Origin: Naegleria gruberi
Lineage: Eukaryota
DNA length: 6,227 bases
Assembly (NCBI GenBank): GCA_000004985.1
Contig: GG739153.1
Reading direction: 5' to 3' (one strand)
Shown here: positions 1-6,227 of the stretch, in pieces
Position numbering within the stretch: position 1 is the stretch's first letter
Layout of the letters: each line of letters starts with the position of its first letter
Made by a program: the position numbers and the translations under genes
The notes under the pieces: model-generated
Seen by the model: only the letters and a program-made list of their open reading frames with translations
Told to the model about the DNA's origin: nothing
The model's database searches: none

Positions 1-97
1 GAAATTCATCCAATAAGAGAAAAAGAAATATGAAAGAAAATGGATCAAAGAAAAGAAAAGTTCAACAATCACCAAAGAAATTAATTACTCTGATAAT

Positions 98-475
98 TTG
101 AAAGAAATACTTCAAGAATATGAAATTAATGGTAAAATTGCTACGAAAATAAGAAATGATGATAAGGTAGCTCTCTATTTTAAACTTGATAATGGGTTTT
201 TAAAGATAATTCACTATTTTGATAATAGTTCAGAGAATGTGAAAGGCATGCAAATTATCAAATCCATTCAGCATGACAATATTAATCAGATTTTTCAATT
301 TAAGAAACTGTCCATAACTAGCTCACAATTAGATGAATTGTTTTTTGAAAACATTTCAGTTACAACCAAATCAGAACCAACAATATTTGATAGAGGATGG
401 ATTATCGTTGAGAATAAATTTCAACACTTCCACATAGGTTCCACAACAGTCAATCACTCGAACAGTATTCAATAA
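98..475 (+). CDS. Protein-kinase-like domain, N-lobe segment (partial). Reading frame 2 is open from position 14, with no in-frame ATG before residue ~50.
   Basis: Seen in sequence: the translation contains KVALYFKL (beta3-like, with the Lys replaced), ENVKGMQIIKSIQHDNINQIF (alphaC / HPN-like region) and a beta4-beta5-like stretch. This fits the N-lobe of the kinase fold whose C-lobe follows at 535-1164. The frame ends at TAA 473-475. Confidence 0.6.
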   Translation: MKEILQEYEINGKIATKIRNDDKVALYFKLDNGFLKIIHYFDNSSENVKGMQIIKSIQHDNINQIFQFKKLSITSSQLDELFFENISVTTKSEPTIFDRGWIIVENKFQHFHIGSTTVNHSNSIQ

Positions 476-534
476 CATTTTCACAATTTGTTGGTGATAT
501 TATTACTTTCATTATTTACCTGAACCAAAAAGAT

Positions 535-1164
535 TTGAATACCAAATTATTATGTTTTATCAAGTTAATGATGGATGCTATTGAAGCAGTTAATATATTA
601 CATGAAAATAATATTATTCATTGTGATATTTCAATTAGAAATGTTGGCATGTTATTTACAAAACATGTCATGACATCATATGCCAAAGAAAAAAGCTCAA
701 TATTGGAAGCATTGCCAAATGTTTCAAACTGTAATTTCATTTTGATTGATTTCAATCATTGTAAAGTGGAAGGACAAGAACAAGCAACATTGAACATTTT
801 TCCAGAATGTAATTTTAAAAAAGAAAATATTTTCTTTCCATTTATATCAGAGGCATACTATCCTACAGATGAATTGGTTCAATTTACAAAAGAACATGAT
901 TATTATAGTATTGCTTTAGTTTTGTCACAATTATTTTTGGCAATTGTTTGTAATGTTTCAATTTCTGAAATATTTAAATGGGAAAATGGAAATTTAAAAG
1001 AATCAGTATTGAGCGAACTCAATAAGAAAATGAAGGAATTTAATAATTTTGATGTGATTATTCAATTGTTGAAGGATGTTATTGAGAATGAGGGTAAATC
1101 TGACATTTGCAATTTCACCAAAACATTCAATTTACTATATGAAAATGTTATTCAACCCAATTAA
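535..1164 (+). CDS. Protein-kinase-like domain, C-lobe (catalytic-loop, DFG-like and subdomain IX motifs). Likely a pseudokinase or atypical kinase. Reading frame 1 is actually open from position 418.
   Basis: Seen in sequence: LHENNIIHCDISIRNV corresponds to the HRDLKPEN catalytic loop, with Arg replaced by Cys and Lys replaced by Ser. ILIDFNHCK corresponds to DFG, present as DFN. IFPEC corresponds to APE. DYYSIALVLSQLF corresponds to DxWSxG (subdomain IX). TAA stop at 1162-1164. Confidence 0.7.
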   Translation: MNTKLLCFIKLMMDAIEAVNILHENNIIHCDISIRNVGMLFTKHVMTSYAKEKSSILEALPNVSNCNFILIDFNHCKVEGQEQATLNIFPECNFKKENIFFPFISEAYYPTDELVQFTKEHDYYSIALVLSQLFLAIVCNVSISEIFKWENGNLKESVLSELNKKMKEFNNFDVIIQLLKDVIENEGKSDICNFTKTFNLLYENVIQPN

Positions 1165-1236: not shown

Positions 1237-1242
1237 TTTATT
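1237..1242 (-). promoter_or_regulatory. AATAAA hexamer overlapping the TAA stop of the Rac-like gene; possible polyadenylation signal.
   Basis: The minus-strand sequence reads caATAAATAata. The hexamer overlaps the stop codon. Function is inferred only; such hexamers are common by chance in AT-rich DNA. Confidence 0.25.
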
Positions 1243-1303
1243 GAATGAAACATTTCTTCTTTTCATCATCAATTTCCGAATCAAATTGTGAATCTTCATC
1301 AGC
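1238..1303 (-). CDS. Probable last exon (3' end) of the same Rac-like GTPase: ...ADEDSQFDSEIDDEKKKCFIQ*, a basic patch plus CAAX box (CFIQ) followed by a TAA stop.
   Basis: Seen in sequence: the reverse-complement translation ends KKKCFIQ-TAA, i.e. Cys at position -4 followed by a stop. This is the hallmark prenylation signal of Rho/Ras GTPases. Same strand, downstream of exons 1-3 across the gap. Linkage to the same gene is inferred, not seen. Confidence 0.55.
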   Translation of the reverse strand, partial: ADEDSQFDSEIDDEKKKCFIQ

Positions 1304-2733
1304 NNNNNNNNNNNNNNNNNNNNNNNNNNNNNNNNNNNNNNNNNNNNNNNNNNNNNNNNNNNNNNNNNNNNNNNNNNNNNNNNNNNNNNNNNNNNNNNNN
1401 NNNNNNNNNNNNNNNNNNNNNNNNNNNNNNNNNNNNNNNNNNNNNNNNNNNNNNNNNNNNNNNNNNNNNNNNNNNNNNNNNNNNNNNNNNNNNNNNNNNN
1501 NNNNNNNNNNNNNNNNNNNNNNNNNNNNNNNNNNNNNNNNNNNNNNNNNNNNNNNNNNNNNNNNNNNNNNNNNNNNNNNNNNNNNNNNNNNNNNNNNNNN
1601 NNNNNNNNNNNNNNNNNNNNNNNNNNNNNNNNNNNNNNNNNNNNNNNNNNNNNNNNNNNNNNNNNNNNNNNNNNNNNNNNNNNNNNNNNNNNNNNNNNNN
1701 NNNNNNNNNNNNNNNNNNNNNNNNNNNNNNNNNNNNNNNNNNNNNNNNNNNNNNNNNNNNNNNNNNNNNNNNNNNNNNNNNNNNNNNNNNNNNNNNNNNN
1801 NNNNNNNNNNNNNNNNNNNNNNNNNNNNNNNNNNNNNNNNNNNNNNNNNNNNNNNNNNNNNNNNNNNNNNNNNNNNNNNNNNNNNNNNNNNNNNNNNNNN
1901 NNNNNNNNNNNNNNNNNNNNNNNNNNNNNNNNNNNNNNNNNNNNNNNNNNNNNNNNNNNNNNNNNNNNNNNNNNNNNNNNNNNNNNNNNNNNNNNNNNNN
2001 NNNNNNNNNNNNNNNNNNNNNNNNNNNNNNNNNNNNNNNNNNNNNNNNNNNNNNNNNNNNNNNNNNNNNNNNNNNNNNNNNNNNNNNNNNNNNNNNNNNN
2101 NNNNNNNNNNNNNNNNNNNNNNNNNNNNNNNNNNNNNNNNNNNNNNNNNNNNNNNNNNNNNNNNNNNNNNNNNNNNNNNNNNNNNNNNNNNNNNNNNNNN
2201 NNNNNNNNNNNNNNNNNNNNNNNNNNNNNNNNNNNNNNNNNNNNNNNNNNNNNNNNNNNNNNNNNNNNNNNNNNNNNNNNNNNNNNNNNNNNNNNNNNNN
2301 NNNNNNNNNNNNNNNNNNNNNNNNNNNNNNNNNNNNNNNNNNNNNNNNNNNNNNNNNNNNNNNNNNNNNNNNNNNNNNNNNNNNNNNNNNNNNNNNNNNN
2401 NNNNNNNNNNNNNNNNNNNNNNNNNNNNNNNNNNNNNNNNNNNNNNNNNNNNNNNNNNNNNNNNNNNNNNNNNNNNNNNNNNNNNNNNNNNNNNNNNNNN
2501 NNNNNNNNNNNNNNNNNNNNNNNNNNNNNNNNNNNNNNNNNNNNNNNNNNNNNNNNNNNNNNNNNNNNNNNNNNNNNNNNNNNNNNNNNNNNNNNNNNNN
2601 NNNNNNNNNNNNNNNNNNNNNNNNNNNNNNNNNNNNNNNNNNNNNNNNNNNNNNNNNNNNNNNNNNNNNNNNNNNNNNNNNNNNNNNNNNNNNNNNNNNN
2701 NNNNNNNNNNNNNNNNNNNNNNNNNNNNNNNNN
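1304..2733. other. Assembly gap (N-run, 1430 nt). It hides the middle and 3' exons of the Rac-like gene.
   Basis: Continuous N. The odd length suggests a scaffolder-estimated gap. Confidence 0.95.
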
Positions 2734-2748
2734 CACTGAAAAACATAC

Positions 2749-2803
2749 CAAACAAAGAAGACATCAGTTCCTGGATATGAAAGAGGTCTCAATCTGTCAT
2801 AAT
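2749..2803 (-). CDS. Rac-like GTPase exon 3: (D)YDRLRPLSYPGTDVFFV plus TG of a Cys codon. It is followed by a GTATGT donor at 2748-2743 and then the assembly gap.
   Basis: DYDRLRPLSYPGTDVF matches the Rho-family consensus DYDRLRPLSYPQTDVF. Splicing at TG|GTATGT gives the conserved Cys of the FLICFS motif, whereas read-through gives VWYVFQ. The remainder of the gene must lie in the N-run. Confidence 0.8.
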
Positions 2804-2852
2804 CTAGTCAATTGTCAAATTGTCACAATTATTAACAACAATTTCAACATAC
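2804..2852 (-). other. Spliceosomal intron 2 of the Rac-like gene, 49 nt, GTATGT...TAG.
   Basis: Removing it joins G|AT to give Asp and restores DYDRLRPLSYP directly after WDTAGQE, exactly as in Rac1/Cdc42/RhoA. The unspliced read-through hits stops. Confidence 0.85.
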
Positions 2853-2919
2853 CTTCTTGACCAGCAGTATCCCACAATCCAACATTATAATTTCTATTTC
2901 CATATGTCACATTAGCACT
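2853..2919 (-). CDS. Rac-like GTPase exon 2: [22 protein letters not shown], plus the first nucleotide of an Asp codon.
   Basis: Switch II / G3 motif WDTAGQE. It aligns to Rac1 [22 protein letters not shown] at the same length. The exon ends in phase 1 at a GTATGT donor. Confidence 0.9.
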
Positions 2920-2956
2920 CTTCCGAAATCAATTTAACTGTCATCAAATTACTTAC
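2920..2956 (-). other. Spliceosomal intron 1 of the Rac-like gene, 37 nt, GTAAGT...AAG.
   Basis: Reading through shifts the frame and hits TAA. Removing these 37 nt joins DNY to SANV exactly as in Rac1 (DNYSANV). The donor is the canonical GTAAGT. Confidence 0.8.
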
Positions 2957-3079
2957 GTAATTGTCAAAAACTGTTGGAACATAATCTTCGGGAAATGAAT
3001 TTGTGGTGGAGGCAATCAAAAGACAACTCTTTCCGACGGCGCCATCACCAACAACTACCAATTTCAAGCTATTGTCCAT
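2957..3079 (-). CDS. Rac-like Rho-family small GTPase, exon 1 (ATG at 3079-3077): [41 protein letters not shown].
   Basis: Hand translation of the reverse complement. P-loop GDGAVGKS (G1), effector region YVPTVFDNY and TTNSFP align without gaps to Rac1 [36 protein letters not shown]. The exon ends in phase 0 at a GTAAGT donor. Confidence 0.9.
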
Positions 3080-3659
3080 TATTATGTACACGTTGATGTG
3101 AGTTTGTTATTTTTTTTTGATTTTGTTTTCAAAGTACCATTGAACAAGGAACTCTTACAAAAATTTGATTAATGATTACTTTATTCAGATTTAAGATCAT
3201 AATTAAAATTCAAAAACAACTTTATTGGTAGGATAGTTTGTAAACTTCAATTTCTTCAACTTTTGCATTTCAACAAACTTTAAAAAAAATAGTCAACATT
3301 CTTCTACTCTAGGAGGACATGATGATTTTCGGAGTGGTTTTACATCATGAAACTACCAAACTTTCACAGCATCACATCAACATCATCTAAATAGTAGTAA
3401 TAGTAATAATTGTTTTTGGTGGATTATCATCATCATTTTGGAATTTATTTTTCATGATGGAAAATCACATGTTGGTGTTTAATCATCCGATCATTCACCT
3501 ACCATCATCAATGTTGTTTTACATTAAAATAATAATAGTATTTGTGGAAATTAATTTTTAGCAATATAATTTTGGAGTCCTTCTGAGTTCCAAATTTCTT
3601 CCTTTGTGGTAACAATTAATCAAAACTCAAACAAAATACCTTTAACTCTTCATCATATT

Positions 3660-5144
3660 NNNNNNNNNNNNNNNNNNNNNNNNNNNNNNNNNNNNNNNNN
3701 NNNNNNNNNNNNNNNNNNNNNNNNNNNNNNNNNNNNNNNNNNNNNNNNNNNNNNNNNNNNNNNNNNNNNNNNNNNNNNNNNNNNNNNNNNNNNNNNNNNN
3801 NNNNNNNNNNNNNNNNNNNNNNNNNNNNNNNNNNNNNNNNNNNNNNNNNNNNNNNNNNNNNNNNNNNNNNNNNNNNNNNNNNNNNNNNNNNNNNNNNNNN
3901 NNNNNNNNNNNNNNNNNNNNNNNNNNNNNNNNNNNNNNNNNNNNNNNNNNNNNNNNNNNNNNNNNNNNNNNNNNNNNNNNNNNNNNNNNNNNNNNNNNNN
4001 NNNNNNNNNNNNNNNNNNNNNNNNNNNNNNNNNNNNNNNNNNNNNNNNNNNNNNNNNNNNNNNNNNNNNNNNNNNNNNNNNNNNNNNNNNNNNNNNNNNN
4101 NNNNNNNNNNNNNNNNNNNNNNNNNNNNNNNNNNNNNNNNNNNNNNNNNNNNNNNNNNNNNNNNNNNNNNNNNNNNNNNNNNNNNNNNNNNNNNNNNNNN
4201 NNNNNNNNNNNNNNNNNNNNNNNNNNNNNNNNNNNNNNNNNNNNNNNNNNNNNNNNNNNNNNNNNNNNNNNNNNNNNNNNNNNNNNNNNNNNNNNNNNNN
4301 NNNNNNNNNNNNNNNNNNNNNNNNNNNNNNNNNNNNNNNNNNNNNNNNNNNNNNNNNNNNNNNNNNNNNNNNNNNNNNNNNNNNNNNNNNNNNNNNNNNN
4401 NNNNNNNNNNNNNNNNNNNNNNNNNNNNNNNNNNNNNNNNNNNNNNNNNNNNNNNNNNNNNNNNNNNNNNNNNNNNNNNNNNNNNNNNNNNNNNNNNNNN
4501 NNNNNNNNNNNNNNNNNNNNNNNNNNNNNNNNNNNNNNNNNNNNNNNNNNNNNNNNNNNNNNNNNNNNNNNNNNNNNNNNNNNNNNNNNNNNNNNNNNNN
4601 NNNNNNNNNNNNNNNNNNNNNNNNNNNNNNNNNNNNNNNNNNNNNNNNNNNNNNNNNNNNNNNNNNNNNNNNNNNNNNNNNNNNNNNNNNNNNNNNNNNN
4701 NNNNNNNNNNNNNNNNNNNNNNNNNNNNNNNNNNNNNNNNNNNNNNNNNNNNNNNNNNNNNNNNNNNNNNNNNNNNNNNNNNNNNNNNNNNNNNNNNNNN
4801 NNNNNNNNNNNNNNNNNNNNNNNNNNNNNNNNNNNNNNNNNNNNNNNNNNNNNNNNNNNNNNNNNNNNNNNNNNNNNNNNNNNNNNNNNNNNNNNNNNNN
4901 NNNNNNNNNNNNNNNNNNNNNNNNNNNNNNNNNNNNNNNNNNNNNNNNNNNNNNNNNNNNNNNNNNNNNNNNNNNNNNNNNNNNNNNNNNNNNNNNNNNN
5001 NNNNNNNNNNNNNNNNNNNNNNNNNNNNNNNNNNNNNNNNNNNNNNNNNNNNNNNNNNNNNNNNNNNNNNNNNNNNNNNNNNNNNNNNNNNNNNNNNNNN
5101 NNNNNNNNNNNNNNNNNNNNNNNNNNNNNNNNNNNNNNNNNNNN
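3660..5144. other. Assembly gap (N-run, 1485 nt).
   Basis: Continuous N. The flanking ORFs on the track are X-run artefacts. Confidence 0.95.
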
Positions 5145-5870
5145 ATCAATTGGGACAGTAGCTTGGCAGATATTCCAATTATATAGATATTAATTTCTAC
5201 CACTCAAATACGTTATCAATATCAATTATAAGAGTAGTGGTATGATATTCTATCTTGTAGCACATCTTGATATTGACTTGTCATATTGCCATGAGTAATA
5301 GCTGACATGGTTGAATGACATGAATATTGAATGATGTCAAAATGATATGAAATTGATAGGAGCCTCATCATATGATGTTAATAACATATGGTATCAATTT
5401 GGTAATGAATCTCATTGTCCTTAGGGTACTTCCCTATTGAGGTACCTTAATTGACTATCTCAATATTTAATATTTAATATGATATTTATTTCAGTTCTAT
5501 CATGTTATATATGTAATTTGAAGCATTTTGATATCATTTTTGATATTTAAATATGATTTATTAGATATTATATACAGCTACTCTTAGTTTTTCAAAATTG
5601 ACTTTGAGATTCCCTAATTGACCATATATATATGACCAATTGATGAAACTAATATCAATCGACTAGATTTTCAATTGTGAACACAATGGTATCAATAGTT
5701 ATATGATTCATGATAGTTTAAAATTGAGTTGGTCATCGGTCATTAAGGTTTGAATGAATTGATATGAAATTCAATACCAATTATTGAAATACCATGATAA
5801 ATTGATCTATATATGATGCTATAATTGAAAGATTTGAAAATTAATATGACTTGATTATCTTGACATTTAT

Positions 5871-5892
5871 AGGGTTTGGGGGTTGGGGTTGG
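5871..5892 (+). repeat. Telomere-like G/T-rich block AGGGTTTGGGGGTTGGGGTTGG.
   Basis: Seen in sequence: G-runs of 3, 5, 4 and 2 separated by TT/TTT, embedded in otherwise AT-rich DNA. It shares its first 10 nt (AGGGTTTGGG) with the block at 6044. Confidence 0.6.
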
Positions 5893-6043
5893 ATTAGAGT
5901 TGTTTTGATTTGTTACTTCGGTGGCACCATGGTCTTTATGATCTAATATAGAGTCTTTAAGTGATCTTGGGCTTTTGGAAAGGTTTTTCAGTAAAGTTTT
6001 AAAAAAAGTATATAATTTCTATCTAGATATCGAGATTTGGTGT

Positions 6044-6068
6044 AGGGTTTGGGTTGGTGGGGTTTGGG
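6044..6068 (+). repeat. Second telomere-like G/T-rich block AGGGTTTGGGTTGGTGGGGTTTGGG; a canonical G4 motif (GGG-N3-GGG-N5-GGGG-N3-GGG).
   Basis: Seen in sequence: four G-runs of at least 3 nt with loops of 7 nt or less. It begins with the same AGGGTTTGGG as the first block, about 170 bp away. Confidence 0.6.
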
Positions 6069-6227
6069 TGAGTTTTATACACTTTCATACAATAGAGTGA
6101 TATTGAAATGTACCCTTTGATATTTCTGGATGGGTAGTATGATTTGGTGATGATTCCGACAATAAAAATCATATATTGTTCATATAATTATCAAGATATT
6201 GTATAATTTATTAAATATAAAGTGGGT

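Follow-up and report, generated by a model that had tools for sequence, protein, structure and literature searches.

A gap-split Rac-type small GTPase gene of Naegleria gruberi and a probable revision of its 3' end

Results

Genes and features at the locus

The window analyzed here is the whole 6,227-bp scaffold GG739153.1 of Naegleria gruberi NEG-M (25-35% GC), which bears on its minus strand a Rac-type small GTPase gene. Two runs of N, at 1304-2733 (1,430 N) and 3660-5144 (1,485 N), account for 47% of the scaffold, and the first of them splits the gene. Ahead of this gap, the N-terminal half of a G domain is encoded, intact, by three exons of the minus strand that are separated by canonical GT..AG introns; past the gap lies a short fragment ending in a CAAX box. 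We consider it likely that the locus holds a conventional Rac-like Rho-family small GTPase gene with a gap in its middle and its 3' end at 1303-1238. The gene is already annotated and already known as an ordinary member of a catalogued family, and it is not a missed gene; the new points are a correction of the 3' end of the deposited model (XP_002668306.1) and an unannotated convergent open reading frame (ORF) that is overlapped by the wrong exon of that model. All features are listed in Table 1.

Exon-intron structure of the 5' half

The three exons occupy three different frames, and removal of the two GT..AG introns, as is characteristic of a spliceosomal protein-coding gene, restores one continuous frame that aligns to Rac without gaps. 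The ATG at 3079 is the first one after an in-frame stop, and the ORF at 2912-3091 opens past that stop. The only 100%-identical protein returned for the spliced product by the homologue search is a 105-amino-acid (aa) "rho family small GTPase" of Naegleria gruberi (EFC35562.1/XP_002668306.1/UniProt D2W5U0, strain NEG-M). The product of exons 1-3 is identical to residues 1-81 of this RefSeq model, and the exon boundaries are thus independently corroborated. A preliminary reading of the letters, made without database searches (hereafter the sequence-only reading), had stated that a six-frame ORF track misses the gene entirely; the exons do lie in three frames, but exon 1 is contained in the 59-aa ORF at 2912-3091.

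The edge of exon 3 can be read in two ways. The Pfam Ras profile gives 89.6 bits when the exon is spliced and followed by Cys and 91.3 bits when it is read through into VFFVWYVFQ, and these scores are equivalent. The GTATGT that follows the exon resembles the donor of intron 2, and only 15 nucleotides (nt) separate the exon from the N-run. An upstream extension of the F-box type was also considered for the N-terminus and rejected, as an in-frame stop is found just 5' of the ATG and the N-terminus is like those of stand-alone paralogues; in addition, the minus strand of 3092-3659 is devoid of ORFs of 40 aa or more.

Protein identity

In the PDB search, residues 4-81 of the 81-residue product aligned to residues 3-80 of Rac without gaps (E-value = 2.5e-36, 126 bits), with Rac2, Rac1 and Rac3 as the best matches and Cdc42 next in the ranking (119.6 bits); the best 60 of the 768 PDB matches are all Rac or Cdc42. 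Pfam Ras (PF00071) matched over profile positions 1-78 of 162 (E-value = 6.4e-25; 88 bits, where the cut-off is 21.6), and TIGR00231 matched as well (E-value = 3.3e-20, 72.5 bits). The G1 P-loop GDGAVGKS, a hallmark of the Ras superfamily, is located at residues 11-18, and the G2 Thr36 in YVPTVFDNY and the catalytic Gln62 of G3 in WDTAGQE correspond to Rac column for column. The switch II/alpha2 segment DYDRLRPLSYP, typical of the Rho family, is exact. Rac proteins carry S41-A42-N43 and Trp56, whereas Cdc42 carries A-V-T and Phe56; the protein described here has the Rac-type S-A-N after DNY (DNYSANV) and a Trp where Rac1 has W56 (GLWDTAGQ). The known part shares 73% of its residues with human Rac1, 72% with human Cdc42 and 63% with human RhoA, and the BLOSUM scores against these human sequences are 315, 302 and 264, respectively; the margin over Cdc42 is small. 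The visible half is, by sequence comparison, most similar to Rac and carries the diagnostic residues of that subfamily, with a modest margin over Cdc42. In the curated Naegleria table, every non-RhoBTB entry of the Rho family is labelled 'Rac' (Herman et al., 2021, PMC8296547).

These results bear out most of the sequence-only reading, which had proposed, from a gapless alignment of three hand-spliced exons, that the gap splits a minus-strand Rac-type GTPase gene of several exons. Every motif that it listed (GDGAVGKS, YVPTVFDNY, WDTAGQE and DYDRLRPLSYP) is present where it had been placed, the S-A-N after DNY is of the Rac type, in line with its claim, and the Pfam search that it had recommended for the spliced translation returned the Ras profile.

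The CAAX fragment at 1303-1238

The fragment ADEDSQFDSEIDDEKKKCFIQ starts at the first base past the gap and reads in frame to a stop. A pattern of three Lys or Arg residues, Cys, any three residues and a stop ([KR]3-C-xxx-stop) occurs once in the six frames of the window, where 0.016 occurrences are expected per composition-matched window, and the expectation falls to 0.0027 when the two middle residues of the CAAX box must be aliphatic. This lone polybasic-CAAX-stop is on the correct strand, lies 3' of the gene and abuts the gap. The 1,430 nt of the gap suffice for the missing coding sequence (~270 nt) and introns.

The tail is also typical of the family in this organism. Among the complete N. 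gruberi 'Rac' tails compared from the curated table (Herman et al., 2021, PMC8296547), all 27 of 27 have a CAAX box and 11 of the 27 end in Gln, with Lys runs ahead of most. Gln-ending tails include those of XP_002677510.1 (KPKKKCLIQ), ACER01000440.1 (IPKKKCIIQ), ACER01000199.1 (GKPKKCFLQ) and XP_002678988.1 (KKDKCTLQ), as well as KIKKQCLIQ, KSKTCFLQ, ERKKNCFLQ, KQKKCMLQ and RRKDCILQ; ADEKKKKCHLL is found among the same curated Rho tails. The layout of an acidic stretch followed by a basic one is likewise found in one N. gruberi paralogue of that set (DDNSADEKKKKCHLL). We therefore regard ADEDSQFDSEIDDEKKKCFIQ-stop as probably the true end of this gene, joined to it across the gap by inference. 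The sequence-only reading had already assigned a KKKCFIQ-stop exon to the gene; this exon is present, non-random and family-typical in form, and its link to the gene stays at the strength just given.

The terminal exon of the RefSeq model

The deposited model takes another course. Its protein continues after residue 81 as CKLNVLVKLQMSDLPSFSITSFNN, by joining the TG at 2749 to the T at 1134, directly after CATATAG (AG at 1136-1135), and it stops at the TGA at 1064-1062. In the 105-aa model the Pfam Ras match ends at residue 82 (position 78 of the 162 in the profile), and the last 23 residues are without Ras similarity. The exon is moreover antisense within a 209-codon plus-strand ORF (535-1164), in DNA of ~25-29% GC; long ORFs are not expected by chance in such AT-rich DNA. 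Given its lack of Ras similarity and its antisense position in a conserved coding region of the plus strand, the terminal exon 1134-1062 very probably arose as an artefact when a model was forced over the 1,430-N gap. The proposed CAAX exon is a better 3' end than that of the public gene model.

Table 1. Positions of the features discussed, numbered along the 6,227-bp window.
Feature	Coordinates	Strand	Description
Exon 1	2957..3079	-	123 nt, residues 1-41; start codon, P-loop GDGAVGKS, switch I; identical to RefSeq model
Intron 1	2920..2956	-	37 nt, GTAAGT...AAG, phase 0; borders from gapless Rac alignment and RefSeq model
Exon 2	2853..2919	-	67 nt; SANV, beta2-beta3 hairpin TYGNRNYNV, GLWDTAGQE (G3 motif/start of switch II)
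Intron 2	2804..2852	-	49 nt, GTATGT...TAG, phase 1; same basis as intron 1
Exon 3	2749..2803	-	55 nt; DYDRLRPLSYPGTDVFFV plus TG (bases 1 and 2 of the Cys codon that corresponds to Rac1 C81)
GTATGTTTTTCAGTG	2734..2748	-	last 15 nt ahead of the N-run; 5' splice site of intron 3 (RefSeq) or read-through coding
Scaffold gap	1304..2733	.	1,430 N; expected, from the length of Rac1 and the alignment, to hold ~90 residues (beta4 to alpha5: NKxD, Rho insert, SAK) and any introns
Probable terminal exon fragment	1238..1303	-	ADEDSQFDSEIDDEKKKCFIQ plus stop (TAA 1240-1238); acidic linker, KKK patch, CAAX box CFIQ
Terminal exon of RefSeq model	1062..1134	-	(C)KLNVLVKLQMSDLPSFSITSFNN-stop, in XP_002668306.1; judged spurious
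Convergent neighbour outside the GTPase gene	17..1164	+	unannotated, 5'-incomplete; frame 2 to 475, frame 1 from ~418

The convergent plus-strand coding region

The plus-strand region ends with the stop at 1162-1164, and 73 nt would lie between the stops of the two convergent genes (1238 and 1164). The listed ORF at 535-1164 encodes 209 aa and found no match, not even itself, in a word-indexed homologue search of a 5.8-billion-protein collection. HMMER against 1.84 billion representatives returned one relative, P0121 (562 aa, from a Logan contig, without Pfam domain), over query residues 3-203 (E-value = 1.1e-4). The upstream ORF at 17-475 is colinear with the preceding part of P0121 (E-value = 0.002), and since both plus-strand ORFs match it colinearly, plus is the conserved coding strand in this area. 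Weak Pfam kinase matches (Pkinase_fungal, E-value = 3.9e-4; Pkinase, E-value = 0.016) and the faintly kinase-like motifs IIHCDISIRN, LIDFN and HDYYSIA suggest that the region possibly represents a lineage-specific kinase-like or pseudokinase family. The two frames overlap at 418-475, with a stop at 473-475. The frame change could be a 1-nt frameshift (a sequencing error or a sign of a pseudogene) or a 95-nt intron at 438-532 with a poor GTTCCA donor.

Remainder of the scaffold

The 1.6 kb of non-N sequence outside both genes (3080-3659 and 5145-6227) has no ORF of at least 50 aa, tRNA, Rfam match or notable repeat, and tRNA, Rfam and repeat scans over the window gave nothing relevant. A scan for bacterial promoters and terminators gave background levels only in the window, and bacterial models are not applicable to a eukaryote. 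Two minus-strand copies of CCCAAACCCTA, at 5870-5880 and 6043-6053, are 173 nt apart, with 0.01 expected by chance; they sit in C/A-rich low-complexity patches (~5868-5897 and ~6038-6067) where the plus strand shows a strong GC skew of 0.44-0.54, and alignment of their flanks gives no longer repeat.

Discussion

Placement in the Naegleria Rho family

N. gruberi has more than 80 catalogued Rho-family genes and N. fowleri nearly 50, with signs of recent birth-and-death evolution in the family (Herman et al., 2021, PMC8296547), and high copy numbers in Naegleria have been described for Rho, Dbl and DOCK (Fort and Blangy, PMC5499878). The gene presented here is one paralogue of this N. gruberi expansion. 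Neither the accession XP_002668306.1 nor the N-terminal peptide nor KKKCFIQ was found in the supplementary files of Herman et al. (2021, PMC8296547), and that curation appears to have passed over this partial gene.

It had been described in the sequence-only reading as a divergent paralogue rather than the housekeeping Rac. That it is one paralogue among many holds, but with 73% identity to Rac1, 74% to the canonical-looking N. gruberi Rac XP_002674299.1 and a resemblance to Rac1 that most of the curated paralogues compared from this species do not reach, the word "divergent" is weakly justified and overstates the case. The differences from Rac1, among them T17S in the P-loop, S22A, Y23S and Q74G, are mostly conservative. 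Eight of the 20 substitutions cluster in the beta2-beta3 hairpin (TYGNRNYNV versus MVDGKPVNL), which the same reading had singled out as unusually rich in Asn and Tyr. This hairpin is the most variable segment among the N. gruberi paralogues compared (VMYKNTTVSL, VVYKEKTVTL, VNYKDEVFIC and VEINDKEVSI), and Asn and Tyr are to be expected in an AT-rich genome (25-35% GC).

Alternative explanations

Several observations weigh against a single gene ending at 1303-1238. NKxD, the Rho insert helix (~13 residues between beta5 and alpha4) and SAK would all fall inside the 1,430-N gap with the second half of the G domain, so that an intact functional gene and its Rho insert are predictions. An acidic stretch ahead of KKK is not usual in the hypervariable region of Rac, and 1303-1238 is open in another frame too. 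As to a physical link between exon 3 and the CAAX fragment, the protein collection contains just the one product with 100% identity, and metagenome contigs, scanned for gap-filling sequence by exact match to 30 nt of exon 3 or to 39 nt of the tail exon, gave 0 matches for either query. Since the curated Naegleria GTPase table does not list XP_002668306.1, no model of this gene has a curator's endorsement.

The missing physical link between exon 3 and the CFIQ fragment leaves room for two genes in place of one, with the fragment as the 3' end of a second small GTPase (e.g., a tandem Rho duplicate) otherwise wholly within the gap, where the Rac gene would end too. The 1,430 nt would just fit the ~300-nt remainder of the Rac gene, a short spacer and an intron-poor GTPase gene of 600 nt, and a family of more than 80 members with recent birth and death (PMC8296547) could supply such a duplicate. 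The two genes would, however, have to be very tightly packed in a gap of estimated size, and strand, order and family-typical tail all fit one gene with fewer assumptions; we rate this arrangement as improbable. The deposited model itself, in which exon 3 is spliced to 1134-1062 to give a 105-aa half-GTPase without CAAX box, makes use of a GT and an AG, and its TG+T junction restores the conserved Cys. Nevertheless, it is hardly credible, as its last 23 residues have no Ras similarity, G4, G5 and half of the fold are lost, its exon is antisense in a conserved ORF and forced over 1,430 N, and KKKCFIQ-stop is left unexplained.

A decaying pseudogene copy or an assembly leftover (e.g., a collapsed or alternative haplotype fragment) might be expected on a scaffold of 6.2 kb with 47% N, in a birth-and-death family, for a gene absent from the curated GTPase table and next to a plus-strand ORF with a frame change at ~418-475. 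Yet all visible elements (the ATG, the three exons, the splice sites and the catalytic residues) are intact, identity to human Rac1 is 73%, the tail is in frame from the gap edge to the stop with a complete CAAX box, and no near-identical second copy is present among the annotated proteins, all of which makes decay or an assembly leftover very unlikely. One Rac-like gene with its 3' end probably at 1303-1238 is the reading that we retain.

Proposed function

Under the single-gene reading, the coding sequence would run on through the gap, with NKxD, Rho insert and SAK, to end at 1303-1238, and the 105-aa RefSeq product would be a gene-model artefact in which exon 3 was spliced over the gap to a fortuitous AG at 1136-1135. 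The roles of the protein as a switch, on membranes and in actin assembly are predicted from Rho-family biology. It would cycle between GDP and GTP, regulated by the abundant Dbl and DOCK exchange factors of Naegleria and by Rho GTPase-activating proteins. The Cys of CFIQ would be prenylated, and the lipid, together with the adjacent lysines, would anchor the switch on membranes. By the CAAX rule a Gln in the last position directs farnesylation, while human Rac1 (CLLL) is geranylgeranylated and metazoan Rac has Leu as the last residue; as the box here ends in Gln, farnesylation is predicted and not geranylgeranylation. By analogy with Rac elsewhere, the switch may control actin assembly in crawling and phagocytosis.

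A more speculative proposal, which we hold to be rather unlikely as a whole, is that the gene belongs to a small class of farnesylated, stand-alone Naegleria Racs with an acidic linker and, jointly, that the plus-strand ORF represents a lineage-restricted kinase-like family. If true, such a class would hint at a distinct mode of membrane targeting; among the curated sequences compared, the Gln-ending tail type is found mostly on N-terminally extended Rho proteins, often with an F-box.

The useful outcome is one of annotation hygiene, with little significance beyond it. The bad exon of XP_002668306.1 hides an unannotated gene on the opposite strand, and the entry is a truncated chimera with 23 terminal residues that are almost certainly wrong, so XP_002668306.1/D2W5U0 is best handled as a partial sequence in Naegleria Rho counts and phylogenies.

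Comparison with known Rac proteins

Human Rac1, Rac2 and Rac3 (1ds6_A, 5qqd_A and 1mh1_A) share with the Naegleria protein the P-loop, switch I, DTAGQ, DYDRLRPLSYP, S-A-N and Trp56 and, if the fragment at 1303-1238 belongs to the gene, a polybasic tail with a CAAX box. Unlike them, the Naegleria protein has GKS instead of GKT in the P-loop and Gly for Gln74, its probable tail has an acidic linker ahead of a short KKK patch, and its gene bears introns of 37 and 49 nt; its CAAX box would be CFIQ (predicted farnesyl) and that of Rac1 is CLLL (geranylgeranyl). The closest non-self Rac gene on a long contig (P0004, L001 3001-3423; ENA contig ctg28051, 802 kb, 37% GC) shows 77% identity. Its locus was considered as a guide to the content of the gap and rejected, as it comes from a different organism, its first ~125 codons are uninterrupted and the Naegleria intron positions are not shared.

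Within N. gruberi, the nearest of the curated sequences compared is XP_002674299.1 (Herman et al., 2021, Table S8), with 60 of 81 residues identical and no gaps. It has the same stand-alone architecture, a similar N-terminus (MDTSIKCVVVGD) and the VxY start of the beta2-beta3 hairpin, but at 74% identity it is a distinct paralogue, and its tail is KKKSGKCSLL, with a Leu-ending CAAX box, in place of KKKCFIQ. XP_002678988.1 is also a stand-alone GTPase, with DDNSLKIIVVGD at its start and the Gln-ending tail KKDKCTLQ, although its identity to the gene presented here is 60%. The Gln-ending N. gruberi Rho proteins in the portion of the table compared have the same tail grammar of a Lys run followed by C-aliphatic-aliphatic-Q-stop; most of them have long N-terminal extensions, several with an F-box, and more divergent G domains, whereas the gene presented here begins directly at the G domain.

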